In this document: piece by piece, positions 19,427-59,342 of the stretch
Layout of the letters: the number at the start of each line of letters is the position of its first letter
Numbering within the stretch: the first letter of the stretch is position 1
Virus record (IMG/VR): IMGVR_UViG_3300031485_000046
Direction: 5' to 3' (one strand)
DNA from: a virus
Length of the DNA: 64,000 nt
Translations under genes and position numbers: made by a program
Notes under the pieces: generated by a model
What the model was told of the DNA's origin: nothing
What the model saw: only the letters and a program-made list of their open reading frames with translations
Database searches by the model: none

Positions 19427-19645
19427 TCATTTCGCCCGCTCCTCCCAGAACCGTCTGCGTCGCTCCTCCCTGTGACGCTTGATATTCTCCCGCACCCTCT
19501 GCGTGCGGGGCGGGAACGTGTTCAGATGGGTCAGCACCGGCTCCACGCTGACAGCTCTGCCGAATTCCCTCTCCCATTCCTGGGCGTAGATTTCCTCGTA
19601 GGATAACATTTCGCGAAATCTGAGCCCCGTGCATCGTCCGCTCAT
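19427..19645 (-). CDS. small basic hypothetical protein inside a GC-rich islet
   Basis: 72 aa ORF starting 1 nt after kdsB stop; local GC visibly about 60% versus ~40% surroundings; no recognised motif. Confidence 0.3.
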   Translation of the reverse strand: MSGRCTGLRFREMLSYEEIYAQEWEREFGRAVSVEPVLTHLNTFPPRTQRVRENIKRHREERRRRFWEERAK

Positions 19646-20436
19646 TCCTTACCCTCCTTTTTTTCTATAATTTCATCATATTCATTTTCTTTACCAGAGT
19701 TTATTATACAACGAACAGCTTCCAAATCAGCAGGAGTATCTACACTAGGTCCAACTTTTTTTGCTCTTGTTATTTCTACTTTAATGGAAAAATCATGTTC
19801 TAATATTCTGAGCTGTTCCAGTGATTCTGCTGATGCCAAAGGTGTTTGTGGCATTTTGGCATAATAATGGATTAAGAAACGTCTAGTAAATCCATAAATT
19901 CCTATATGTCGGTAGATGGGATATACTTCTTCCGGATCTCTAATAAAAGGGATAGGAGACCTACTGAAATATAAAGCATCTCCATTTATTCTGAATGCCA
20001 CTTTTACTACCGATGGATCATTGATAGTAGCGGTATCTGTAATAAGGGCACATATCGTAGCAGATTCCGTAGCCCTATTTTCAGTTTTATAAAATAATGA
20101 TATTACTTCATCAATCATACAAGGATTAAGTAATGGTTCATCCCCTTGTATGTTTATCACTATATTATTATTAGAGAATTTTTTAGCTATTTCCACAACT
20201 CTACTAGTTCCGTTTGTATGATTTGGAGAAGTTAGCATAGCTTCTCCACCGAAATTATTTACAGCCTGCACGATTCTTTCATCGTCAGTAGCTACAATCA
20301 ACCGGTCAAGTAAAGTAGATCGTGAGGCTCGCTCGTACACTCTCTGGATCATTGTTTTTCCGCATATATCAGCTAGAGGTTTACCGGGGAGCCTTGTAGA
20401 ATTGTATCTAGCGGGGATAACTCCTAAAGTTATCAT
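19642..20436 (-). CDS. kdsB: 3-deoxy-manno-octulosonate cytidylyltransferase (CMP-Kdo synthetase)
   Basis: 264 aa; near-collinear with KdsB hallmark segments 'VIPARYNSTRLPGKPL', 'VATDDERI', 'QGDEPL', 'ALYFSRSPIP', 'HIGIYGF', 'EQLRILE', 'VDTPADLE' (compared from memory with E. coli KdsB). Confidence 0.85.
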   Translation of the reverse strand: MITLGVIPARYNSTRLPGKPLADICGKTMIQRVYERASRSTLLDRLIVATDDERIVQAVNNFGGEAMLTSPNHTNGTSRVVEIAKKFSNNNIVINIQGDEPLLNPCMIDEVISLFYKTENRATESATICALITDTATINDPSVVKVAFRINGDALYFSRSPIPFIRDPEEVYPIYRHIGIYGFTRRFLIHYYAKMPQTPLASAESLEQLRILEHDFSIKVEITRAKKVGPSVDTPADLEAVRCIINSGKENEYDEIIEKKEGKE

Positions 20437-23448: not shown

Positions 23449-24873
23449 ATGACAACCGCAGTAATCAGTATGTATCAGGTGCAGGCAAATAATTATGAAA
23501 TTCGTATGGAAACGTACATGGGAAGAAAGCATTTGATCGTTCCTGTAGTGATGATGGTAGAAGGTGTGCATTGTGGTAGTGCTGGCCCGTTGTTTCATTC
23601 AATAGAAGAGCTTGGTAAGTACCCTGATTCTTGGAATGGAATCCCTGTTTCTATTCAGCATCCCGAGCAAGATGGGCAGTATATTTCCGCAAACAGTCCT
23701 GAAGTTCTTGAACGGCAGACTGTTGGGCAGGTTTTCAATACGTTTGTTGATGGAAATAAGCTAAAAGCAGAGTGCTGGATTGACATTGAACGTATTACCA
23801 CTATTAGTCCAGAAGCATACGCATATCTCCAGAATAAACGACCTCTGGAAGTGAGTATTGGTGTGTTTTCAGATGATATTCCACAAGAAGGCGATTGGAA
23901 CGGAGAACATTATATAGCTGTTGCCACCAATCATCGTCCTGATCATCTTGCTCTTCTTCCTGGTGGCAGAGGTGCGTGTTCCTGGGCAGATGGAGCAGGT
24001 ATCAGAGCCAATTCTATGAAGAAAGGAGGAGAGCCGGTGGATATTACTGCAACGATAAAGGATCTTGTGTGTAAAGGATATGGAGTTCTATCGTATCAGA
24101 GTAATGAAGGTTTTCGTTCCATTATGTCGCAGATACAGGATGTGCTCAATGGGTACGATACGGGTCTAAAACTGCATTATCTGTCGGAAGTATACGAGGA
24201 TTTTTTCGTATATGAGGTGAATTCTCGTATCAATCCAGAAACCTACATTACATCCGTAAAGTATTACAAACGTCCGTATTCTGTTAATGAAGATGGAAAA
24301 GTTACGCTGGGAGATGTAGCTACGGAAGTGATGCGCAAAATTGTGTATGATGAGGTTAAAACTAATTCCAAGTATCGAAGAAAGGATGATGTGAAAGTGG
24401 ACAAAGCAAAAATGGATATTCTGGTCCAGAGCGGAGTGTTTTCCGAAGCTGACCAGGAGTGGCTTACGGGACTCGATGCCGAGCGCCTTGATAAGCTGGT
24501 TACTGCTTGCACTAAGAAAGTGGAAACTCCGCAGGCGAATGAGGCGAAAGTGGATATTCCCACAGTCATTCAGGCACTGGCTGAACAGTTTAAGACTCCT
24601 GAGCAGTACATCCAGCTGATGCCGGAAGAAATGCGTGATCAGATGGAATCGGGACTGAAACTGCACAGGGAACAGCGTCAGGCAGTCATTGACAAGATCA
24701 AGGCGTTCAATGTATTTTCGGAAGAAGAGCTTCAGAAAAAATCTATGGATGAACTGAACAAGATTTCTAAGCTGATTCCTGCGCCTAGGGATTATTCGCT
24801 TGCCGGAGCCAAATCTGTCAATACGAATACGGAAACTGAGGAAGTTCTGCTTCCTCTCGGGCTGAAAGCCTAA
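23449..24873 (+). CDS. head morphogenesis protein (putative prohead protease/scaffold, DUF2213-like)
   Basis: 474 aa between portal and capsid genes; SD AAAGGAGG; coiled-coil-rich C-terminal half consistent with scaffold function. Confidence 0.55.
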   Translation: MTTAVISMYQVQANNYEIRMETYMGRKHLIVPVVMMVEGVHCGSAGPLFHSIEELGKYPDSWNGIPVSIQHPEQDGQYISANSPEVLERQTVGQVFNTFVDGNKLKAECWIDIERITTISPEAYAYLQNKRPLEVSIGVFSDDIPQEGDWNGEHYIAVATNHRPDHLALLPGGRGACSWADGAGIRANSMKKGGEPVDITATIKDLVCKGYGVLSYQSNEGFRSIMSQIQDVLNGYDTGLKLHYLSEVYEDFFVYEVNSRINPETYITSVKYYKRPYSVNEDGKVTLGDVATEVMRKIVYDEVKTNSKYRRKDDVKVDKAKMDILVQSGVFSEADQEWLTGLDAERLDKLVTACTKKVETPQANEAKVDIPTVIQALAEQFKTPEQYIQLMPEEMRDQMESGLKLHREQRQAVIDKIKAFNVFSEEELQKKSMDELNKISKLIPAPRDYSLAGAKSVNTNTETEEVLLPLGLKA

Positions 24874-25386: not shown

Positions 25387-25413
25387 TCACAAACATAAGG
25401 AGGAGTGCTGAAT

Positions 25414-26535
25414 ATGGAACCCAATGTCTATATGGATTTTCTTGCTAACGGAGCGGCTCAGGGAGAAGTTGCCCAGAACCTTCAGGTGAATGGTCGGCTT
25501 GATCCTGCTATGCTTCGTCCGTATATTGGAAGGGATGGAGCATCCTACATCACCGTCTGCAAACACGGTGCTGATCCCAAGGATCCTAAGAGTTATCAGT
25601 CTATCCGCGTGAATTCTGGTGCAACTCTTCGCAGAGAAGAGTGGCAGTATCTGGACGAGGCTGTTCTCAATGTTTCTCGGTATCGTCTTGGCGGTATTGC
25701 TGACCTTGAGGCAAACGGACTTGTTTACAACCTCAACAATGCTATGGGAACCACCGTTCTTGAGTACCATGATGTATCTGACGCTTTCGAGGCAGAACTT
25801 ACGATGGATGGGGTTACTAGGAGCAAGGGAGACCGTGTGAATTTCGGTGCAAAGTACCTGCCCATTCCTATCATTCATGTGGACTACGAGATTAATGCTC
25901 GTGTTCTTGCCGCTTCTCGTAGCCTTGGTAATGCGCTCGATACGACTCAGGCAGAAGTTGCCGCTCGTAAGGTTATGGAGAAGCTAGAGAAAATGATGTT
26001 CACCAGCGAAACTTACTCGTTTGGTGGGGGAACAATCTATTCTCTTGTCAATCATCCTCATCGTAATCCTGTTACTCTCACGGTGAATTGGGATGATAGT
26101 ACGTCTACTTCTTCTGGTGATCCTGTCATTACAGGTGCAAAGATCATTCAGGATGTTCTTGCTATGAAGCAGGCAAGCATTGATGCTTACCACTATGGTC
26201 CCTGGATGCTATACATTCCGACCGCATACGAAACAGTCCTTGACTCGGATTATGATACCGTTACGCCTGGCACTACGATTCGGGAGAGGATTATGAAGAT
26301 CGAAGGTATCAAAGGTATCAAGGTTATTGATGTACTCGCTTCCAATAACGTGCTCCTTGTGCAGATGACCCCCGATGTGGTTCGCCTTGTGAAGGGCATG
26401 GCTATTCAGAACGTGGAATGGCAGACTGAGGGACGCTTCATCAATAAGTACAAAGTTATGACGATCCAGGTTCCTCAGGTTCGTTCTGACTACAACCAGA
26501 AGAGCGGCATCGTTCATCTCGCTCCTGCACCCTAA
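25414..26535 (+). CDS. major capsid protein (DUF2184-like)
   Basis: ATG 25414 with SD AAGGAGGA 9 nt upstream (track begins GTG 25405); ~373 aa; position after portal/scaffold. Confidence 0.7.
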   Translation: MEPNVYMDFLANGAAQGEVAQNLQVNGRLDPAMLRPYIGRDGASYITVCKHGADPKDPKSYQSIRVNSGATLRREEWQYLDEAVLNVSRYRLGGIADLEANGLVYNLNNAMGTTVLEYHDVSDAFEAELTMDGVTRSKGDRVNFGAKYLPIPIIHVDYEINARVLAASRSLGNALDTTQAEVAARKVMEKLEKMMFTSETYSFGGGTIYSLVNHPHRNPVTLTVNWDDSTSTSSGDPVITGAKIIQDVLAMKQASIDAYHYGPWMLYIPTAYETVLDSDYDTVTPGTTIRERIMKIEGIKGIKVIDVLASNNVLLVQMTPDVVRLVKGMAIQNVEWQTEGRFINKYKVMTIQVPQVRSDYNQKSGIVHLAPAP

Positions 26536-27015: not shown

Positions 27016-27729
27016 ATGCGGGCGTGGAATACTCCGAGGATATGGGATAAAGGTGAATGTTGGATAATAGGAGGAGGACCTTCTATTATGCGACAGTTCC
27101 ATATTCCTGAGAATGTGATTGAGGCGGTTAGAGAAAAAAGATTACCGCTTTCTGCATATTCTCCGTACATGGAAAGCATTCATTCTAAGCATATCATCGG
27201 AGTAAACATGGCATTCCAGCTAGGAAATTGGGTTGATTTTTGTTTCTTCGGAGACGATGGTTGGTTTCGGGACCATAGAAAAGAATTAGCCCAATTTACT
27301 GGTGTAAGGGTATCTTGCGCACCTATGTTCAGTAAAAATACGTACCATGCAGATAATGGGGAACGTATTAAGTACCTAGCGCAGGATCCTAAAAAATCAC
27401 ACGGTATTAGTGAAGTACCTTACACCGTATGTTGGAATGCAAATAGCGGAGCGGCGGCAATCAGCCTAGCTTCTCATCTAGGTGCTAAAAAGATTGTTCT
27501 GTTAGGATTCGATATGCAGTTAGATCCTAATGGAAATAGTCATTGGCACAAAGAGTATCAAATGAATCCAGCAAAACGATCCGTGTTTCCTCGACACCTT
27601 AGAGGGTTTCCAATTATCGCCGCGGATGCTAAACGGATGGGCATCGAAATACTAAATGCCTCACCTGAAAGCGTAATAGACGATTTTCCTAAAATGACAG
27701 TGGAGGCGATATTGAATGGTTCTCCATAA
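27016..27729 (+). CDS. CstII/Maf-like (GT42/DUF115-type) ulosonic-acid transferase-like protein
   Basis: 237 aa; 'IIGGGPS' N-terminus and 'NSGAAAISLASHLGAKKIVLLGFD' core resemble CstII 'IIAGNGPS' and 'SGVYMCAVAIALGYKEIYLSGIDF' (recalled, not searched). Confidence 0.55.
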   Translation: MRAWNTPRIWDKGECWIIGGGPSIMRQFHIPENVIEAVREKRLPLSAYSPYMESIHSKHIIGVNMAFQLGNWVDFCFFGDDGWFRDHRKELAQFTGVRVSCAPMFSKNTYHADNGERIKYLAQDPKKSHGISEVPYTVCWNANSGAAAISLASHLGAKKIVLLGFDMQLDPNGNSHWHKEYQMNPAKRSVFPRHLRGFPIIAADAKRMGIEILNASPESVIDDFPKMTVEAILNGSP

Positions 27730-28330
27730 AAACAATATCGCGGTTATAGGACACGGTCCTAGCACTCGTGGAAGGAAACTAGGCAGTTTCATTAACCTTT
27801 GTGATACGGTCATTCGCATGATCGAATGTGATTGGCAGGATGCAGAAGATTACGGTAGTAAATATACGATCGGTGTATATGCTACGGGAGGATCTGACGA
27901 TTTTACAAAGGTGATTGAACGAAAGCCTTCTCTTTGCTGGTGGGTGTACGTTGCGGCTGGAACCCGTCCTTCTACGGCGATGAATGATGATACAGTAGAT
28001 GCTCCAGGTGTTGCGGGTCGTCCGATACGGTGGTTACGAAGAACCGTATGGGATTGGATCGGTGATAATAAAAAGTTCTCTAGAGGTACTGCTGCCGCGA
28101 TTGCGTCTATGGCGATCCTAAAACCCACTACAGTTCATTTAGTTGGGTTTGATGATGTTGCAAGGGGTGGAATGCTGAAAGGAGCATATCATCCTCCTGA
28201 GTTGCAACAGTACCTCAAAGAACAAGGAAAGACACTTGCCAGAAGTGAAACAGACCATGATTGGAATAATGAAGGCACCGTACTCCAACGTGCCGCAGAC
28301 TATTACGGAGTTGAGGTGAATTTTCTATGA
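27716..28330 (+). CDS. CstII/Maf-like transferase-like protein (paralog of 27016..27729)
   Basis: 204 aa; 'IAVIGHGPS' and 'SRGTAAAIASMAILKPTTVHLVGFD' mirror the upstream paralog. Confidence 0.55.
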   Translation: MVLHKNNIAVIGHGPSTRGRKLGSFINLCDTVIRMIECDWQDAEDYGSKYTIGVYATGGSDDFTKVIERKPSLCWWVYVAAGTRPSTAMNDDTVDAPGVAGRPIRWLRRTVWDWIGDNKKFSRGTAAAIASMAILKPTTVHLVGFDDVARGGMLKGAYHPPELQQYLKEQGKTLARSETDHDWNNEGTVLQRAADYYGVEVNFL

Positions 28331-29565
28331 AGACAATATCAGAGGAATATATTCGCCTTAATTCTGAGGTACACAACCAGCGGAGAGGGTACGGTAATTC
28401 AGCCAATCGGTTTGCTAAGGACATTGGGCTTGTTTTGCATCAGTTCCACACAATGTCTTTTCTGGATTATGGATGCGGAAAAGAATCTTTGATCCGTTGT
28501 ATTACGAAGGACTATCCGTATCTTGCCCAGAGAGCAAAGTATGGAGCATACGATCCAGCTATACCGCACCGGTCCGTTAAGCCGGAAGAGCAGTATGATA
28601 TGGTTATTTCTACAGATGTTCTTGAACACATTGAACCTGAATATCTGTCAGCCGTGCTGGAAGAGATCAAAGGATATGCTAAAAAAGGCGTCTATCTGAA
28701 TATCTGTATGCGACCGTCAGGAGATATTCTACCTGATGGTCGAAATGCCCATCTGATCGTTAAAGATGCCCCGTGGTGGCGTGAAACACTATCCAAAGCG
28801 TTTGAAGGATGGGCACTGGAAGAACGGGATGTACTTGACTCTTGGCGCAATTATACAGTAGTATTGACACCACCTAAGATTCAAAAGCCATTAAATATCG
28901 TCTGTTTCTACTGGAAAGGTACGAGTAATCGGTACCCAGGATGGGACGATGTGGATTTGGCAAAGATTTATGTCAACAATCTGTATAATGGCGTCCGTCG
29001 AAATTTGAACAAGGATTACAAGTTCATCTTGTTTTCCAATGATATTGAAGATGGGCTGGATCCACATGTAGAGATACGAAAGTTCCAGCCTATCTCGTGG
29101 ACAGGGTGCAATCCTAAGTTGTATGTGCATAGCCCAGATGCAGGATTAGAGGGAAGGGTGCTTACGTTTGATATGGATACTATCATCGTAGGAGACCTTA
29201 CTAATTTTGCAGAATACGATGGGGCTTTCACTACACGGATGGAACCTGACCGAAGAAGAGTAACAGCAGGAGACCTGCTAGGATTTGAAGCAGGTGAAAC
29301 GTACCAGTTATGGGAGAATTATAAGAATATCTCCAAGTATGCTGAAAAGTATCAAGGAGATGAAAGGGAGATCTACAAACTTCTTTGGAAACATTTGCTG
29401 TACTGGCAAGAAGAAATACCCGGGCAGTTGGTTTCTTATAAAGGTGATGTTCGTCCTAATCAGAACAGACTGCCTAGAAATGCAAGAATTGTAAGTGCGC
29501 ACGGTAAGCCTCGTCCGCATGAGATCAATGCGGAATGGATTAAATCGTGTTGGTGGGGAAAATGA
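28327..29565 (+). CDS. class I SAM-dependent methyltransferase fused to a DxD-containing transferase-like domain
   Basis: 412 aa; MTase motif I 'FLDYGCGKES', motif II 'DMVISTDVLEHIEPE'; C-terminal 'LTFDMDTIIVGD' DxD-like region. Confidence 0.55.
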   Translation: MKTISEEYIRLNSEVHNQRRGYGNSANRFAKDIGLVLHQFHTMSFLDYGCGKESLIRCITKDYPYLAQRAKYGAYDPAIPHRSVKPEEQYDMVISTDVLEHIEPEYLSAVLEEIKGYAKKGVYLNICMRPSGDILPDGRNAHLIVKDAPWWRETLSKAFEGWALEERDVLDSWRNYTVVLTPPKIQKPLNIVCFYWKGTSNRYPGWDDVDLAKIYVNNLYNGVRRNLNKDYKFILFSNDIEDGLDPHVEIRKFQPISWTGCNPKLYVHSPDAGLEGRVLTFDMDTIIVGDLTNFAEYDGAFTTRMEPDRRRVTAGDLLGFEAGETYQLWENYKNISKYAEKYQGDEREIYKLLWKHLLYWQEEIPGQLVSYKGDVRPNQNRLPRNARIVSAHGKPRPHEINAEWIKSCWWGK

Positions 29566-30278
29566 AACCGTATGTAGAATCTCCCATTATCATAACAGGT
29601 TGTCCACGAAGCGGAACTAGCATCATTTCTGGGATGTTAGAAATATGTGGTGCATTTGCAGGAACTATTCCACAGCCTACGAAACACGAAACAAGAGGCA
29701 TGGGAGAGAATCGGGTTATATATGAGGATGTTGTTAAACCGTATATTCAGAGTTTGCAAGCGGATCCATCTGGACAATGGCCATTGATGGATTCTGAAAA
29801 ACTGATGATTCCTATCGACTGGGAATCAATGATTTCAGACGCCTTGCACAAGGATGGCTATATGGGAGGCAAATGGCTATATAAGAGTAATACTGCGGCT
29901 CTTATGTGGAAAGTGTGGTCCTACGCCTATCCTAGCGCCAAATGGGTCCTAGTACGCAGGCGTACAGGTGACATAGTTTCTTCATGTTTGCAGACCTCGT
30001 ATATGAAAGCATTCAAAAATCCTGCATATCGTAAGGAAATTGGAGCGGAAACAGAATCAGAAGCATGGATCCATTGGGTACATAAGTATGAAGAAGCCTT
30101 TGTAGGGATGTTGACTGCGGGAGTTAATTGTAAGGTTGTCTGGCCGGAAAGATTCGTAAGAAACGATTATCAACAGTTGTATGAAGTAATTGAATGGGTA
30201 GGGCTTGAATGGAAATCTTCTGTAGCAGATTATCTAGACCCAAAGCTATGGAAGAATGAACGGAAGGAGGAGTGCTGA
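29562..30278 (+). CDS. sulfotransferase (PAPS-dependent type)
   Basis: ATG 29562 overlapping upstream stop (ATGA); 5'-PSB-like 'IIITGCPRSGTS' and 3'-PB-like 'VRRRTGDIVSS'. Confidence 0.6.
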   Translation: MKPYVESPIIITGCPRSGTSIISGMLEICGAFAGTIPQPTKHETRGMGENRVIYEDVVKPYIQSLQADPSGQWPLMDSEKLMIPIDWESMISDALHKDGYMGGKWLYKSNTAALMWKVWSYAYPSAKWVLVRRRTGDIVSSCLQTSYMKAFKNPAYRKEIGAETESEAWIHWVHKYEEAFVGMLTAGVNCKVVWPERFVRNDYQQLYEVIEWVGLEWKSSVADYLDPKLWKNERKEEC

Positions 30279-31029: not shown

Positions 31030-31523
31030 TGGCATACGCGGTATGGAATGGTTTGCCAAAAGTGATTCAAAATCTAAATGCACAGATAATGAAAATTCAG
31101 GGACGAACACTACTTGGATTGATACGTGGTGCATCAATTATCAAAGATACGATGGATTCTATGCCTCCTGTTATACCTGTTGATACAGGAAATATGCGCC
31201 ATAGTTGGTTTGTTGTCACGAACAATGGTGGTGTTCGAGCTGGAAAGAATCCTAGTTTTCTGCCGGGTCCGCATAATGATCGAGATGTTGCAAAGCTAAA
31301 GAGTGACCACGCTAAGGCGATTTCAGTATCCGCTTCTATGATTAAAGGCAAAGAACCGGCGGTAGCATTAGGTTTTTCTGCCTATTATACGATGTGGGTA
31401 CATGAAAACGTAGGCGCACATTTTACAAAACCGGGTTCTGGTGCTAAGTTTTTTGAAGCAGGAATAAAAAATAGTACCAAACGAGTATTGATGGTGATAC
31501 AATCGGAGGCGAAAATACGATGA
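31029..31523 (+). CDS. putative neck/tail completion protein
   Basis: ATG 31029 overlapping upstream TAA (track ORF 30888..31523 uses an upstream in-frame start); ~164 aa. Confidence 0.5.
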   Translation: MAYAVWNGLPKVIQNLNAQIMKIQGRTLLGLIRGASIIKDTMDSMPPVIPVDTGNMRHSWFVVTNNGGVRAGKNPSFLPGPHNDRDVAKLKSDHAKAISVSASMIKGKEPAVALGFSAYYTMWVHENVGAHFTKPGSGAKFFEAGIKNSTKRVLMVIQSEAKIR

Positions 31524-31957
31524 ATGCTCCTTCTATTGATATAAAGGATATTTTAGCGTATATTCCTCCTTCCGAATCATCTAGTGGATACGATCCTGTT
31601 AATGAGTTTGGATTAACATTCGGATCAAATTTATTTGTAGGACGAGAGCCTGCACAACCAGACGAAACAGTTACAATTTTCGACGTTGTAGGATGGGAGC
31701 CTCAGCTTACCTTTAACAAAGAAGAGATATATGAGTACCCGGCTGTTCAAGTAAGAGTTCGTTCCAGATCGTATGTCACTGGTTGGAATCTTCTTGAACA
31801 GATTGTACGGAGGTTGCACGGAATTGCTCAGGAAACATGGAATGGGACATTGTATAGTGTAGTGCGGTGTTCCAGAGCACCGATGCTCTTGGATTGGGAT
31901 GAAAATGCAAGAGTGCGGTTAATTGCTAGTTTTGAAATTCAAAGGAGGAGTGCTTAA
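31520..31957 (+). CDS. putative tail terminator/completion protein
   Basis: 145 aa, immediately upstream of major tail gene. Confidence 0.5.
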   Translation: MNAPSIDIKDILAYIPPSESSSGYDPVNEFGLTFGSNLFVGREPAQPDETVTIFDVVGWEPQLTFNKEEIYEYPAVQVRVRSRSYVTGWNLLEQIVRRLHGIAQETWNGTLYSVVRCSRAPMLLDWDENARVRLIASFEIQRRSA

Positions 31958-31958
31958 T

Positions 31959-32393
31959 ATGGCAATTGCTGGTGTTGGAACAGTATTCAACCGTTGGGAC
32001 CCTACAGCGGGATCGTCGGGCGGATGGAAAAGAATTGCGGAGATTAACAATATCACTGGCCCGGGTATGTCGAGGGATACGATTGATACATCCACCCTTG
32101 ATACTGAGGGCGGATATCGGACATTCATCACAGGATTCAGAAATGCAGGCACCATGACCCTTGCGATGAATTTTACTCAGGCAACCTATCTTCAGATGAA
32201 GGCAGATTTTGAGAGTAATGATCCTGTTTCTTATCAGGTCATTCTTCCGGATGATGAAGAAACTGTGATCGAATTCGATGGACTTGTTACTGAAATTCCG
32301 TTGACGATTCCTACGGATGACAAGATTACTGCGGATGTTACGATTCAGATCAGCGGCCCTGTTGATGTATTCAAGGGCAGTAGTGGAATGTAA
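31959..32393 (+). CDS. major tail protein
   Basis: ATG 31959 with SD AAAGGAGGAG (track begins 31923); ~144 aa; precedes chaperone/frameshift/tape-measure trio. Confidence 0.6.
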   Translation: MAIAGVGTVFNRWDPTAGSSGGWKRIAEINNITGPGMSRDTIDTSTLDTEGGYRTFITGFRNAGTMTLAMNFTQATYLQMKADFESNDPVSYQVILPDDEETVIEFDGLVTEIPLTIPTDDKITADVTIQISGPVDVFKGSSGM

Positions 32394-32412: not shown

Positions 32413-32835
32413 ATGGCATTTTTGAACAGGGAAGAACTTCTGAAAAAAGCACCGTTTAGGGTGGAACGAGTAGATTTTCCTAATGGGGATTTTGTGTTCG
32501 TTCGCCAAATGTCTTCTAAGATGAAAGATCAGCTAGAAAATTCGGTTCTTAGGCGTAGTATTGACAAGAACGGACAGGTACAGTTTGAACAGGATCTTTC
32601 AGGATTCAATGCAAAAGTAGCGGCACTTTCTCTTTGTGATGAAGAAGGTAATCTGCTTCTTTCTTTGAAGGATGCAGACCTGCTTGCAGAGAACAAACCC
32701 GCAGAAATGATTGATACCATTTCTCTTAAAGCAGGTGAACTGAACGGCATTTCTGTCAATGCGAAAGAGGAAGCAGTAAAAAACTCCGAGAGCGGCACAC
32801 CCGAAGATTCCTCTTCAGGTTGTGTCGAGAATTAG
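32413..32835 (+). CDS. tail assembly chaperone (gpG-like, zero-frame product)
   Basis: 140 aa, acidic; SD AGAGAGGAG; contains A_AAA_AAC slippery heptamer near 3' end; precedes tape measure. Confidence 0.7.
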   Translation: MAFLNREELLKKAPFRVERVDFPNGDFVFVRQMSSKMKDQLENSVLRRSIDKNGQVQFEQDLSGFNAKVAALSLCDEEGNLLLSLKDADLLAENKPAEMIDTISLKAGELNGISVNAKEEAVKNSESGTPEDSSSGCVEN

Positions 32836-33185
32836 GATACACACACCCTAACGATCTGCTGGAATGCCTCTCACTTGAGGAACTCCAAGAATGGGAGGCA
32901 TTCGATTCCTTAGAGCCTGTGGGAAGATTAGAAGAACGAATGGAATATATGTTTGGGATGGTTTGCGCAGTTATCACAAACAATATTGCCGCCATATTCG
33001 GTAAGAAGGGTTCTAATCAGACTACAGTAACTCCAGCAGATTTCATGCCTAAATGGGGTGTGTTCCCTGAAGAAGTAAAAAAGGAAAAACAGATACAATC
33101 TGTTGAGGAAATGAAACAAATACTGCTTTCTATGGCTAAAGTACAGAATACCAAACATCCTAGAGAAAGGAGGCGAAGAAAATAA
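32413..33185 (+). CDS. tail assembly chaperone frameshift fusion product (gpGT-like)
   Basis: Joins 32413..32781 (frame 1) to 32784..33185 (frame 0) via -1 slip; both frames verified open. Confidence 0.6.
32778..32784 (+). other. -1 programmed ribosomal frameshift slippery heptamer A_AAA_AAC
   Basis: Zero-frame codons GTA AAA AAC (V K N) verified against ORF translation; -1 frame open from 32784 through track ORF 32820..33185, ending 1 nt before the tape-measure ATG. Confidence 0.7.
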
Positions 33186-35819
33186 ATGGCGATAGGTGGT
33201 ACTGCTAGTCTTGGAACACTTGTTACCACACTTGGTGTTAATTCAAAACCACTGTTGACTGCGGAAAAGCAGGTAGCCACATTTGCTAATAGAACGAATA
33301 CGTTGATGGCGTCTGTCCGTAGGACAATGATGACCGTATTCGCTACTGTTGGTGTGGGCCGTCTTGCTAAAGGATTTCTTGATGCCGCCGTATCTGTGGA
33401 AAATTACAAAGTATCTTTGAACGCCGTTATCAAGGACGCACAAAAAACGGAAGCTGTATTCCAAGACCTTTTCAAATGGGCGTCCATCAATCCTATTGAT
33501 ACGGATGATGCTATTAAATCATTTGTTCGTCTGAAAACAGCTGGTGTGGAAAATACAAAAGCCGCTGTTGTCGCCGCGGCAGATGCGGCAACAGTTATGC
33601 AGAAACCTGTTGAATACGTAGCAAATGCGATGGTTTCTACGAATAATAAGATGCTTCGGCAGATAGGTGTACAGCTTGACCGTACAGGTAAAACAGCTAT
33701 TATCCGAAGTGGTAAAGTACGAATTGAAGTTGAAAAAGATATAGACAAGATCCGTCAAGGCATTATCGAGGTTCTTCAAAAGAATTTCGGTGGTGCGATG
33801 GATGCTTTCAAAAATACCTGGAGAGGTTCTCTGAATACCATGAAAGGTCTTTGGTGGACTTTCATGGCGGAAGTTATGGGAACAAACAATTCAGGAGGTC
33901 CTTATGAAACATTGGTCAAAGGGATAAACAGGGTTCGGGATGCTTGGATAGAATGGAGAGAAACTACGGATTATACAGAATTTGTAGCAAATACCCAAGC
34001 AGTATTTTCAGCCATGATTGATGGGATGATAAAGGGTATTGAGATGTTAGTAAAAGGGTTTAAGTGGTTGCTTGATAATCTAGAGATGGTAAAAACAGCG
34101 ATTATTGTACTTGCAAGTGCGAGAGTGATGGGGCTTCTTATCCGTTCCTTTGCTCTCCTTCGTACTGAATTAATTGCAGGAAGTGCAGCCACTTCGTTAT
34201 TTATGAAGGCGATATATGCGCTCAGGCTTGCATTTCTTGAACTACGCACGGCAAATACAATTTTAGGAGGGCTAAAAGGGGCACTTGCCGCTTTGGGGCT
34301 AGGGCCGGGTGGTTTGTTAATCGGAGCAATCGGTGGTTTGGTACTCCTTGCGGAAAATTTGAAACCTCCGTTCCAAGTTGCGTATGATGAGATTCGCAGA
34401 TTCAAGCAGGAATTACGCACCATCCCTGTAGACAAGATTAAGGAGATTGTTGATCTTAGTTATTCCATGGGTGGGTTTGGGATGGGGGGAAATTATAAAG
34501 CCTCCATAGCGCAAGCAGTACAAAATGAAACAGGTAGAACATTGGCTGAAATAAAAACACAAGCTGGTAAAATGAAAGCTATGTGGAATTACATGAAGCA
34601 AAAAGGGTATGGGGATAAGATATATGTAGAGCCAGAAACAACAGATCAACCTAGTATGGGCGGCGGTGAATCTAAGTATAAAAAACTCATCCAGCAAATG
34701 AAGGATGAGGCAAAATATCTTGGTGCAAACGTACAAGCCTTTCTTCCTATACTGGATCAATGGGCATCTAAGATGAAACCTCTTTCTGAGGATTGGAAGC
34801 TGATTAAAGATTATGCTGTGGAAATAAGAACAGGAATGGCTAAAGAAGCTGGGAAAGAAGCCGCTGATACAATGAAACGGCTGGAAGAGCAAATAAAATT
34901 GCAAAAGGAAGCGAGAGAAGCGGCGGAACAAGGAGTAGAAAAGTTCTGGAGCACCGCGGCTAATGGATTTTCGCAAGGACTTATTAAAGGTCAAGAGTAT
35001 TTCCAGATGCTCACAAATGAATTTGAAAAATTGAAAGAAGCGGTAAATGCAGAAGCCGGTGGGTTTTTGAATATGGAAGATATATTCAATTGGACTGAAC
35101 CGATGTGGACTATATTTTCTGAATTGCAGAGTGTGGGAGGACATCTTGCTAATCTTGACCTTACTAGGCTCAACGAGCAGTTGGAAAAAGGGGTTCTTTC
35201 TCAAAAAGAGTGGAATGCGGCCGTACAGGAATTACTCGACAAATACTCCGCGCTTCCTTCTGTCGTGGAACAAGTAAACAACGCTCAGCAAAACACAAAG
35301 AAGACCTCCGACGAGTTCGGAATAAGCGCAAAACTCTGGGCGAACGACCTCTCACAAGGACTTGCACAAGCCATTGTCAACGCCGAAGACCTGGGTGACG
35401 CGCTGCGGAATATTGCCAAGTCCATAGCAGGGAGTTTTTTACAAAAGCTCATCGGTGGATGGATCGGCGGTTTATTCGCCGACGGCGCGGCCTTTCAAGG
35501 CGGGAGCGTCATCCCGTTCGCAAAAGGTGGTATCGTGGGCCGCCCGACAATCTTCCCTATGGCTCGCGGCATGGGCTTGATGGGGGAAGCTGGCCCGGAG
35601 GCGGTCATGCCGTTGACACGGACAGCAGGGGGCGAGCTTGGCGTTAAGGCAGAGGGTAACGGCAGCGGCGAGATGAATATCACCATGAATATCAACGCCG
35701 TTGATAGCCGCTCCTTCGTGGAGATGATGCGGTCGAACAGGGCGAGCGTTGAAAGCATCGTTGTGGAAAATATTATGAAAAACGGGGCTGTTAGGAGTGC
35801 TATGAGGGGGATGGCGTAA
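33186..35819 (+). CDS. tail tape measure protein
   Basis: 877 aa, alpha-helical/Gly-rich; lambda gpH-like C-terminus 'GGSVIPFAKGGIVGRPTIFPMARGMGLMGEAGPEAVMPLTR'; composition shifts AT-rich to GC-rich near 35200. Confidence 0.85.
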   Translation: MAIGGTASLGTLVTTLGVNSKPLLTAEKQVATFANRTNTLMASVRRTMMTVFATVGVGRLAKGFLDAAVSVENYKVSLNAVIKDAQKTEAVFQDLFKWASINPIDTDDAIKSFVRLKTAGVENTKAAVVAAADAATVMQKPVEYVANAMVSTNNKMLRQIGVQLDRTGKTAIIRSGKVRIEVEKDIDKIRQGIIEVLQKNFGGAMDAFKNTWRGSLNTMKGLWWTFMAEVMGTNNSGGPYETLVKGINRVRDAWIEWRETTDYTEFVANTQAVFSAMIDGMIKGIEMLVKGFKWLLDNLEMVKTAIIVLASARVMGLLIRSFALLRTELIAGSAATSLFMKAIYALRLAFLELRTANTILGGLKGALAALGLGPGGLLIGAIGGLVLLAENLKPPFQVAYDEIRRFKQELRTIPVDKIKEIVDLSYSMGGFGMGGNYKASIAQAVQNETGRTLAEIKTQAGKMKAMWNYMKQKGYGDKIYVEPETTDQPSMGGGESKYKKLIQQMKDEAKYLGANVQAFLPILDQWASKMKPLSEDWKLIKDYAVEIRTGMAKEAGKEAADTMKRLEEQIKLQKEAREAAEQGVEKFWSTAANGFSQGLIKGQEYFQMLTNEFEKLKEAVNAEAGGFLNMEDIFNWTEPMWTIFSELQSVGGHLANLDLTRLNEQLEKGVLSQKEWNAAVQELLDKYSALPSVVEQVNNAQQNTKKTSDEFGISAKLWANDLSQGLAQAIVNAEDLGDALRNIAKSIAGSFLQKLIGGWIGGLFADGAAFQGGSVIPFAKGGIVGRPTIFPMARGMGLMGEAGPEAVMPLTRTAGGELGVKAEGNGSGEMNITMNINAVDSRSFVEMMRSNRASVESIVVENIMKNGAVRSAMRGMA

Positions 35820-56262: not shown

Positions 56263-58080
56263 TTATTTGAAATGGTAATCTCCCTTCTCATTCCAAGAAC
56301 AATCAACAGGACACACTTCTGCTTCTACTTCCAAGGGTACATTTATCCAGCTCCAGTGCTTAGGTAAATCTTCACAAGTAATCCTATGAACAGTAGACGC
56401 AACCATATCTAATTCGTCAGGATGCACATCCAACACCATTGCGTCATGTATCTGTCCGATCAATCTGGATTTCCAGTTCTGTTCTCTGGATATCTTGTCA
56501 ACCTGAATGAACGACCATAACAGACAATGAAATGCACTTCCCTGAATAGGAATATTTATGCATTCATTCCTACGCATGATACCAGAACATCTGAATCCTG
56601 TGTACATGCTCACATACCCGTTTTTTTGATACCCTTCCCACCACTTGTCTTTCCAACGATTATACACTTTGAATCGCCTATTCCAAAAATCATCTTCAAT
56701 TTTCTTGATATGGTCCGTAAACTTATCGAAGGAATCTAGCTTGTTTGCAATCAAGTGGTCGGAAATATGACCTCCGTCATGCTCAATGCCTTCACCTTTC
56801 TTCCATTTGCCTTTAGATAATCCGCACCATTTACAAGCAATATTTTCGGCGCAGTTTACATAATAGTCACCATAGAACTGCGGAAATACAAATCCGTTCT
56901 TTGCCGCTTGCCTCATCATTTTATGCGATGGTATACTCTTGTCTAACTTATCAAGTACAAATATCTGACAAGCCATATCACCGTGCATATCCGATGAAGG
57001 ATCTTCAATGTACTTTCTCATAACAGGGTCATGATGGTAACACTCGCTGATTCTTACTTCCACTCCTGAATAGTCTATTTCAAGTAGCTGGTGACCTGGC
57101 TTAGGAAATATCGCTTTGCGAGTAATCTCCATAGCCTCTTTATCTCGCTTGGGAATATTTTGGAAGTTTATCCGCTCCGATGAATTATGTACGCATATTT
57201 GGTTCACGATAAAATTATGATATTTTTCCACTTCAATATCGTACACATCTACCGGCTCATCAAGGTACTCTATTGTGTGGTCTGTATGATTAGACAATAC
57301 CTTATTAGAAAGACGTGTATCTGATAACGCCCTCGCTTGCACGTATGTTCCATCTATTAGACGGATTTTGTGCTCAGGTGTCACATCTAAGTATCCTTTC
57401 CCACCTCCACCGTTTATAGAGTAATGGATTCGCACAACTTTCTTATGTCCTGTTTTGCCAGCCCATATAACTTTTTGAATAGAAGGGCGGAGTTTATCGT
57501 CAAAACAATACACATAATCACCCTTCTTTACATTTTCAATAGGGGTCCCTTCTGGTTGTGCTTCAAAATCTTTCATTACCAATACTTTAGATCCTTTAGC
57601 TACACAAGAGCGAAATGTCTTTACTGTATGCAAATTAAAGAAAGGATGCAAGTATCCGCCTACTTGTTCTCTTATGAAAGCATCCAGATACGTATCTCGC
57701 ACCTTTTTCAATTTGCGCATTTCCAAAATCCACTTTATCTCAGGAATATCAATCTGGGAAAGTGCTTCATCGTCTGTTGCACCCTTGCCAGATGGTGTCA
57801 ACTTTGCAGGGGTGATTTTCCTAACATTGTACAAAAGGTGTGCTAACTGCCAATTAGAATCAGGGTTAGCCTTAGCACCATACACCTTCGTCCAATGCAT
57901 ATAGAATTTAGTATCCCTGAGTTTTCTATCCAATCGTGCTATTTTTTTGTCAAGGTACTCTTTTTTCTTTAAGCAGTAATCAACATCAATCCGCATTCCT
58001 TCTTGTTCTGCCCTCGCAAAAGCAAGGATGCCATCTTGCAATAGCTGATATGCTTCAGGAAGATTAGGTGTCAGTTGCAT
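56263..58080 (-). CDS. polA: family A DNA polymerase, polymerase-domain subunit (intein-containing)
   Basis: Motif A 'LLEIDYSGVEVR', motif B 'RQAAKNGFVFPQFYG', motif C 'QIHDAMVLD'; SD AAGGAGGG 8 nt before ATG 58080 (track start 58107). Confidence 0.85.
   Translation of the reverse strand: MQLTPNLPEAYQLLQDGILAFARAEQEGMRIDVDYCLKKKEYLDKKIARLDRKLRDTKFYMHWTKVYGAKANPDSNWQLAHLLYNVRKITPAKLTPSGKGATDDEALSQIDIPEIKWILEMRKLKKVRDTYLDAFIREQVGGYLHPFFNLHTVKTFRSCVAKGSKVLVMKDFEAQPEGTPIENVKKGDYVYCFDDKLRPSIQKVIWAGKTGHKKVVRIHYSINGGGGKGYLDVTPEHKIRLIDGTYVQARALSDTRLSNKVLSNHTDHTIEYLDEPVDVYDIEVEKYHNFIVNQICVHNSSERINFQNIPKRDKEAMEITRKAIFPKPGHQLLEIDYSGVEVRISECYHHDPVMRKYIEDPSSDMHGDMACQIFVLDKLDKSIPSHKMMRQAAKNGFVFPQFYGDYYVNCAENIACKWCGLSKGKWKKGEGIEHDGGHISDHLIANKLDSFDKFTDHIKKIEDDFWNRRFKVYNRWKDKWWEGYQKNGYVSMYTGFRCSGIMRRNECINIPIQGSAFHCLLWSFIQVDKISREQNWKSRLIGQIHDAMVLDVHPDELDMVASTVHRITCEDLPKHWSWINVPLEVEAEVCPVDCSWNEKGDYHFK
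57184..57606 (-). other. mini-intein (141 aa, Hint domain only) in the 'TxRxSS' motif of the polymerase
   Basis: Residues C168..N308 of track ORF: block A 'CVAKGSKVLV', block B 'TPEH', block F 'VYDIEVEKYHNFIVN', block G 'CVHN' followed by Ser; flanks join to 'TFRS|SSERINFQNIP' like Pol I 'TGRLSSTDPNLQNIP'. Confidence 0.8.
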
Positions 58081-59342
58081 CCTATGTACCCTCCTTGCTG
58101 AATCCATCGCATTTGTTTAGATGCTAACCGGTAAGTGAACAAACTATCCATACCACAGTATATCAATAGTTTATTCCAAATATCAGATCCTACAGGAACA
58201 TCAAGCAATTTGTTCATGGAATTGCTATCTTTATCATCCGCCCCTTTAAGATATGGAGCGACCTCATCATCATACCCTGCTACACCAAAATTGATATAGG
58301 TTTGTATCTTCAATCCTGTGATGTCTGGTCTGTTATCAAGAATGTGTGTAGCCAACATAGTATCCCATATCCAGTTTTTTACTTCATACCCCAGAATATT
58401 TTGTGTCCATGTGTGTTCAAACTTCAGATTTTGGGCAATCTTTCCTATCTTGTCTGATTGCAAAATTTCCTTAAGCAGTCTATTTCCTTTCTTACTTTTA
58501 GGCATCCCAAAAACTATTGCATCTTCAGGATTACTACACATGGACATGCAGATGATTTTGTGCTTGCTTGTATCATGCGGTTTAAGGCCCGTCGTTTCAT
58601 AATCAATAGCAATAGAAAACGGAAACTTTCTAGAAAGAAACTCTTCAAAAATTCCTACTAGCTCACTTTCTGATTTTACTATCTTGATAGCCGTCATTTC
58701 ATCTGGATATGTTTGCATAGACATGTCCACTGTATTTAATGCCCTGTCAAGGTCCTGTTTCCATACTGTTCGATATTCCTGTGCATCTTGTTTTTCTACA
58801 AACTCTGGATGAAATATCGGGCAGATCCACGTATTGTATTTCCTATCTGGAATAGTAAATCCTCTCCATTTATTCATTCCACCTAAATTCTTTGTCCAGA
58901 TAGAACCTATCACGGAGTTTAATGCTAGTTCACCTACAAGAATTATCACTTTAGGTTTATACTGCTCAATAGTAGATAGCACTCTTCGTCGGCAACATTG
59001 AACTTCTTTTGTCCACGGATTGGTGGTTTCCTTGGACCCTGAAGCATAGCAAGACAAAGCAAAGAGATTCAGACAGTCTTTGAACAAATCAACGCCTCTA
59101 CGTTCAAATTCTCGCCTAAGCGTTGTTCCAAATCTGTCTTGCCACGGTTTGCCTACTCGATCATCTCTACTGCTTGGCATATCACCAATGACCATTATTT
59201 TCTTTTCAAATTCCCCGAATGGTGCCATTCTAGGAGACGAAATATCTTTATACAACCCACAAGAAGCGCAAGAGAAAGCCTTATTACCACTAGGCCTAGT
59301 TTTAGATTTAGTTTCTTCTACTGAAAAGAATCCACTAGCCAT
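58071..59342 (-). CDS. DNA polymerase N-terminal subunit: UDG-like (family 4-type) domain + 3'-5' exonuclease domain
   Basis: 423 aa; 'CASCGL' and 'FHPEF' UDG-family-4-like elements with degenerate motif A ('GDMPS'); Exo I 'IAIDYETTGL', Exo II 'NLKFEH', Exo III 'YCGMDSLFTY'. Confidence 0.75.
   Translation of the reverse strand: MASGFFSVEETKSKTRPSGNKAFSCASCGLYKDISSPRMAPFGEFEKKIMVIGDMPSSRDDRVGKPWQDRFGTTLRREFERRGVDLFKDCLNLFALSCYASGSKETTNPWTKEVQCCRRRVLSTIEQYKPKVIILVGELALNSVIGSIWTKNLGGMNKWRGFTIPDRKYNTWICPIFHPEFVEKQDAQEYRTVWKQDLDRALNTVDMSMQTYPDEMTAIKIVKSESELVGIFEEFLSRKFPFSIAIDYETTGLKPHDTSKHKIICMSMCSNPEDAIVFGMPKSKKGNRLLKEILQSDKIGKIAQNLKFEHTWTQNILGYEVKNWIWDTMLATHILDNRPDITGLKIQTYINFGVAGYDDEVAPYLKGADDKDSNSMNKLLDVPVGSDIWNKLLIYCGMDSLFTYRLASKQMRWIQQGGYIGCN

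Follow-up and report, generated by a model that had tools for sequence, protein, structure and literature searches.

[quoted passage not shown] We analysed a 64,000-nucleotide stretch of DNA (the window; IMG/VR record IMGVR_UViG_3300031485_000046) that resembles a phage genome, with genes for a terminase, a portal, a capsid-like protein, DNA polymerase A, ThyX and an SNF2 helicase, a GC content of 42% and no tRNA genes along its length. The original prediction had placed a −1 programmed frameshift site near the end of the chaperone gene and had read the region as the gpG/gpGT arrangement of siphoviruses. Our analysis leads to the same reading: with a probability of about 0.9, this is a chaperone gene of the lambda gpG type, in which a −1 ribosomal slip on A_AAA_AAC would yield G and a minor, longer product, GT.

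The chaperone gene pair and its heptamer

The tail genes of the window run in the order terminator, tube, G/T, tape measure, gpM-like (PF05939) and gpJ-like (PF13550 and PF09327), with the G/T pair between the tube and tape measure genes. The gpU-like tail terminator (31520..31957, + strand) matches PF12691 Phage_tail_terminator_6 at 8.4e-15. The major tail (tube) protein, which is lambda gpV-like and has a predicted start (31923..32393, + strand), matches PF16460 and PF16461 (2.5e-12 and 1.6e-11) as well as phrog_158 (1e-20), and its gene lies directly 5' of the chaperone gene. G, the zero-frame chaperone of 140 residues (32413..32835, + strand), begins at an ATG preceded by GAGGAG and matches PHROG 344 'tail assembly chaperone' at 3.3e-15; a Pfam search of G returned no match.

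The T segment occupies the −1 frame from CTC at 32784 to the stop codon TAA at 33183-33185 (32784..33185, + strand). It matches phrog_337 and PF06223 Phage_tail_T ('Minor tail protein T'), the latter at 1.4e-12 and 48.3 bits, against a gathering cutoff of 25.9. The GT fusion, join(32413..32784, 32784..33185), is 257 residues long, and a PDB sequence search with it gave no match. Behind T lies the gene for an 877-residue tape measure protein (33186..35819, + strand), with matches to phrog_1716, 32885 and 2335 and a weak one to PF20155 TMP_3. Its ATG at 33186 directly abuts the TAA of T, which bears out the claim that the −1 frame is open from the slip site to 33185 and is followed by the tape measure gene.

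Bases 32778-32784 read AAAAAAC. In the ORF 32413..32835 the codons GTA, AAA and AAC begin at 32776, 32779 and 32782, respectively, which phases the heptamer as A_AAA_AAC, and the zero-frame stop codon TAG (32833-32835) is the 17th codon past AAC; sequence and ORF thus agree with the predicted phase and distance to the stop. This is the sole in-phase XXXYYYZ heptamer in the entire G ORF. The −1 frame is open from 32739, 13 codons 5' of the heptamer, and overlaps G by 97 nt, with the heptamer inside the overlap; the +1 frame has many stops. Between 32739 and 32819 the −1 frame contains no ATG, GTG or TTG. The first such codon is TTG 32820, and the sequence ahead of it contains no Shine–Dalgarno (SD) motif, leaving the T-like domain in an overlapping ORF without a start or ribosome binding site of its own.

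The presence of such a heptamer in one sequence is only mildly unlikely by chance. Counted over the 68 non-overlapping long ORFs of the window, 70 in-phase heptamers occur in 17,679 codons (0.4% of codons), and since about 0.13 would be expected in the 32-codon overlap, the observation is weak evidence when made in a single window. Among the 70, only the heptamer at 32778 has a long −1 ORF beyond the zero-frame stop (135 codons). In related contigs, gene callers routinely split T off as a gene of its own; this, like the chance expectation, would suit a coincidental heptamer, with T made from an internal start (e.g., TTG 32820) or not expressed at all. Such a reading has to contend with the lack of −1 start codons between 32739 and 32820 and of an SD motif for TTG 32820, and lambda T is not known to be made other than as part of GT. 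The decisive statistical weight is carried by the comparison of homologues rather than by the single window.

Conservation among homologues

The G/GT region had no match among 50,697 phage records, either by blastn in distant mode or by tblastn, and the G alignment, scanned against 185,579 species genomes, likewise retrieved no relative. Relatives are numerous among metagenomic and IMG/VR contigs. We kept 80 loci of 161 IMG/VR matches, with at least 54 different G sequences among them. Because these homologues share ancestry, naive p-values calculated from them overstate their independence.

In all 54 distinct homologues, which span 38–98% amino acid identity, A_AAA_AAC is found in phase at the homologous Lys-Asn codons. 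The Lys codon is AAA in 54/54 (57% background in the same genes), and the Asn codon is AAC in every sequence and never AAT (34% background in the same genes). The codon ahead of AAA is GTA in 35 sequences, ATA in 12, ACA in 4 and CTA in 3; it thus always ends in A, against a background of 26–33%. We regard this as decisive evidence that the heptamer is conserved through synonymous constraint, beyond the needs of the protein. The agreement of 54 independent assemblies excludes a sequencing error. At the homologous position, two more distant relatives (29–32% best-segment tblastn identity) still have a slippery sequence, which is A_AAA_AAT (overlapping A_AAT_TTG) in one and A_AAT_TTA in the other.

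The same codons bear on how the frame would be changed. A slip of tRNA-Lys on A_AAA in the P site, with the A site empty, would have the same biology and a junction of the form ...VKK/LRER.... The A_AAA tetramer permits P-site slippage, and the pure −1 reading KKLR is the conserved one, N and K at the junction being indistinguishable in sequence data. However, the phasing of the full heptamer and its seventh base are invariant, and the use of AAC in 54/54 sequences against 34% suggests that the A-site codon matters, which makes a P-site-only slip very unlikely. A tandem slip of both tRNAs is the mechanism that we prefer.

A homopolymeric run of A could also act at the level of the transcript. 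If RNA polymerase added one A to the six, the mRNA itself would encode GT, with the junction ...AVKK/LRER..., and no ribosomal shift would be needed; a one-base insertion gives the identical −1 frame product, and transcriptional slippage is known in some phage and bacterial genes (reviewed in PMC5009743). Nevertheless, we consider it highly improbable here, because the A run is exactly six in 54/54 sequences and longer in none, neither the X_XXY_YYZ phasing nor the seventh base, C, varies and the A_AAT_TTA of one of the more distant relatives is not a homopolymer. Efficient transcriptional slippage in bacteria uses runs of about eight to nine or more. A ribosomal shift remains our preferred reading of the locus.

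Amino acid conservation changes frame at the heptamer. Over the 14 codons 5' of it, the mean pairwise identity of 52% in frame 0 exceeds the 25% of frame −1, and −1 stops occur within this stretch in 51 of the 54 sequences. Over the 14 codons 3' of it, the relation is reversed (41% for frame 0, 73% for frame −1), and −1 stops are absent. From the heptamer onward, the −1 frame encodes the conserved peptide KKLRxRPxRxFxFRLCRELG. This is the second decisive line of evidence, and it shows that conservation leaves frame 0 for frame −1 precisely at the heptamer. Since the −1 frame has no start codon between 32739 and TTG 32820, the conserved −1 peptide can be made only by entry at the heptamer. In two homologues (L037 and L082), the zero frame stops straight after AAC, and the zero-frame tail of G is therefore dispensable.

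These comparisons leave a coincidental heptamer with next to no chance of being correct, because the 14 −1 codons from the heptamer to TTG 32820 are more conserved than frame 0 and the heptamer itself is invariant under synonymous constraint. The predicted siphovirus gpG/gpGT arrangement is upheld by the PF06223 domain in the −1 frame, the gene order, the invariant slip site and the switch in the frame under selection. In the distant relative L010 (2556..3091), the −1 T ORF has only 69 codons and ends well before a tape-measure-like start, which may mean that T is truncated, that the assembly is wrong or that the genes are arranged differently.

Candidate stimulatory elements

The original prediction allowed for a stimulatory hairpin downstream of the heptamer, and RNA folding does predict one, a 14-bp stem-loop with a UUCC loop at 32793..32827 (+ strand), 8 nt past the heptamer. 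Its folding energy is −17.8 kcal/mol, with z-scores of −3.0 to −3.2 relative to dinucleotide shuffles. Most relatives in the clade of the window keep the hairpin (−17 to −26 kcal/mol), and no significant hairpin was found in the folded sequences of L013 and the more distant L010. In an alignment of 14 sequences, 86% of cells are paired, compared to 37–50% in controls with slid partners; the value of 86% is obtained with the bulge moved, and the register of the window itself pairs 81% of cells. Four pairs show changes on both sides (e.g., AU in 6, GC in 3 and GU in 1), but the hairpin lies inside dual-coding sequence and its covariation is modest. We identify the hairpin 32793-32827 as a probable stimulatory structure, a candidate with moderate support from folding and alignment.

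The more distant clade (38–48% identity) has a different hairpin, with a 6-bp stem and a 3-nt loop, located 6 nt past the heptamer. Two of its pairs covary clearly (CG 16, GC 7, UA 4 and AU 1; GC 9, AU 8, UA 6 and CG 4). None of 500 shuffles reaches the observed score, and 79% of cells are paired, compared to 12–59% in slid controls. Since hairpins are found in both clades, downstream structure seems to be under selection across the family, with its form replaced between clades. The position of the covarying hairpins, 6–8 nt downstream of the heptamer, is typical of stimulators of ribosomal −1 shifts and is a further point against slippage during transcription.

A second predicted hairpin (32863..32903, + strand; 12 bp, approximately −23 kcal/mol) is situated in the T coding region, 80 nt past the slip site. 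As a distal stimulator it was rejected; it is found only in close relatives and is lost at ≤75% protein identity, and it is probably not functional.

Upstream of the heptamer, an SD-like GAGGA is located at 32767..32771 (+ strand), 6 nt 5' of the slip site. An SD-like 4-mer occurs within 24 nt 5' of the heptamer in 46 of 54 homologues, mostly as (A)AGGAG(G) at −13 to −8. At these elements, Glu is encoded by GAG in 41/46 sequences against a background of 29%, and Lys by AAG in 33/46 against 41%, although the sequences are related and p-values for these biases are naive. A conserved K-E-E peptide at the element could partly account for the motif. The GAGGA is thus a possible upstream stimulator, which we put forward as a lead from the sequence and the codon bias of the homologues. 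An Rfam search of the whole window gave nothing at the gathering score, and a permissive scan of 32700-32950 gave chance-level matches only.

Taken across the family, these elements may form a unit. We tentatively propose, at somewhat less than even odds, that a large family of uncultivated phages has fixed a full three-part −1 cassette, consisting of an SD-like AAGGAG(G) approximately 7 nt upstream, the A_AAA_AAC heptamer and a stem-loop that was replaced in evolution (6 bp with a 3-nt loop in most members, 14 bp in the clade of the window). If this is true, the family would be a natural comparative system for the evolution of stimulators of a weak Asn-codon slip site, and the tRNA set of the host might account for the complete absence of AAG in place of AAC.

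Known systems and other genes of the window

In lambda, gpG and gpGT are made by −1 programmed ribosomal frameshifting at G_GGA_AAG (Levin 1993; Xu 2004, 2013, 2014; summarised in PMC5009743). Numerous G and a few GT molecules attach to the tape measure protein, tube protein is brought in by the T domain, and a critical factor is the G:GT ratio, approximately 30:1 (PMC5009743). Long-tailed phages in general conserve the G/GT frameshift, which is textbook material (Xu et al. 2004, via PMC5009743 and PMC10885494).

The locus of the window resembles that of lambda in several ways. Both pairs lie between the tube gene (V in lambda) and the tape measure gene (H in lambda), and both consist of a G of approximately 140 residues followed by a −1 T ORF without its own start, with a T domain that belongs to PF06223 and a T stop at the tape-measure start. 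In a pairwise BLASTP of the GT fusions, the aligned segments are residues 133-166 of the fusion predicted here (FLFRLCRELGYTHPNDLLECLSLEELQEWEAFDS) and residues 143-176 of lambda GT (FALKLAREMGRPDWRAMLAGMSSTEYADWHRFYS). The alignment falls right after lambda's own slip site, at an equal distance from the slip in both fusions, and the T motif FxxxLxRExG begins 8–9 residues past the slip in both. The two systems differ in the heptamer (G_GGA_AAG in lambda, A_AAA_AAC here) and in the position of the slip, which is 6 codons before the G stop in lambda and 17 here. Only the T part was aligned in this comparison, and G has no detectable similarity to lambda G. A further difference from lambda is the apparent selection here for a hairpin downstream of the heptamer and an SD-like element upstream of it. 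A fold comparison found the HK97 tail assembly chaperone (PDB 2OB9), with only 20% sequence identity and from a model of moderate confidence (pLDDT 73).

By analogy with lambda, we propose that most ribosomes would terminate at TAG 32833 and release the 140-residue G, while a minority would slip back by one base on A_AAA_AAC (32778-32784). In a tandem slip, tRNA-Lys would re-pair from AAA to AAA and tRNA-Asn from AAC to AAA, and translation would continue in the −1 frame to TAA 33185, giving GT of 257 residues. The predicted junction is ...EEAVKN followed by LRERHTRRFLFRLCRELG... (LRERHT after the junction), and the C-terminal part would be the lambda gpT-family domain. Many G and few GT would then coat the tape measure protein, the T domain would recruit the tube protein and both G and GT would be absent from the virion, as they are in lambda. 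The slip probably gains in efficiency from the hairpin at 32793-32827, 8 nt downstream, and the GAGGA 6 nt upstream possibly adds to it; the three parts together would form a signal of the dnaX kind. In E. coli, ribosomes shift far less readily on A_AAA_AAC than on A_AAA_AAG (PMC5009743), although this may differ in the host here. The low shiftiness fits a low-level shift aided by stimulators.

The signal of E. coli dnaX appears to share the upstream SD-like purine motif, the A-rich heptamer and a stem-loop, which here lies 6–8 nt downstream, a few nucleotides 3' of the heptamer. The last codon of the heptamer is AAG in dnaX but AAC in 54/54 sequences here, and the locus thus does not belong to the A_AAA_AAG type read by a single tRNA-Lys(UUU). 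The SD-like element, 6–8 nt upstream here, is also more closely spaced than in dnaX, for which approximately 10 nt upstream is optimal. Furthermore, the dnaX shift serves early termination, whereas the shift here would provide a C-terminal extension. No Rfam family matches the signal of the window.

Earlier proposals have put the slip of the chaperone gene on AAAAAAC in phiCbK-like Caulobacter phages (PMC3556154), Acinetobacter phage Loki (PMC5313236), Paenibacillus phage Dragolir (PMC6003738) and the haloarchaeal virus HCTV-2 (PMC5009743). All of these share the heptamer and the gene pair with the window but have no detectable sequence relationship to its G/GT. In our reading, the frameshift is real but ordinary, both the G/GT slip and the AAAAAAC site being already known in phages. 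It belongs to a lineage of uncultivated, siphovirus-like phage without a sequenced isolate and leaves the known view of tail assembly unchanged. Annotations of the locus should fuse T with G, as join(32413..32784,32784..33185), instead of listing the T ORF as a separate 121-residue gene starting at TTG, and the same correction applies to related metagenomic contigs in which gene callers split the pair. For the study of recoding, the homologues provide a comparative set with an invariant A_AAA_AAC, a codon-mapped frame switch, a clade-specific covarying hairpin and a possible SD-like stimulator.

Further genes of the structural module were noted upstream of the tail genes. A 474-residue protein (23449..24873, + strand; DUF2213) is a candidate scaffold or protease and precedes the gene of the capsid-like protein (25405..26535, + strand), which matches DUF6260 and, weakly, Linocin_M18 (encapsulin/HK97 fold) and is a candidate major capsid protein. 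A weak MptE-like match is located at 27016..27729 (+ strand). Inside the module, after the capsid-like gene and before the genes for the head-tail connector and the tail, lie a 412-residue Methyltransf_23 protein (28327..29565, + strand) and a Sulfotransfer_3 protein (approximately 29562..30278, + strand). The pair is found at the same place, upstream of the tail genes, in four relatives (L015, L017, L018 and L019). It is unusual in a virion module, and the two enzymes may modify the virion or glycans. A G_GGA_AAA at 29556..29565 (+ strand), 3 codons before the methyltransferase stop and with 240 open −1 codons, was considered as a second frameshift site and rejected, as the two genes share an ordinary ATGA overlap (ATG 29562, TGA 29563).

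A CTP_transf_3 cytidylyltransferase of the CMP-sugar synthetase type is encoded at 19642..20436 (− strand; 1.5e-56). Seen with the methyl- and sulfotransferases, it is a hint that the phage may encode a pathway for modifying sugars. The family A DNA polymerase (56263..58107, − strand) has an intein-like interruption, with Intein_splicing and PT-HINT matches over residues 189-308 and the polymerase domain in three stretches. Directly upstream of the polymerase gene, the single ORF 58071..59342 (− strand) carries two domains, one of the uracil-DNA glycosylase superfamily and one a DNA_pol_A_exo1 3'-5' exonuclease.
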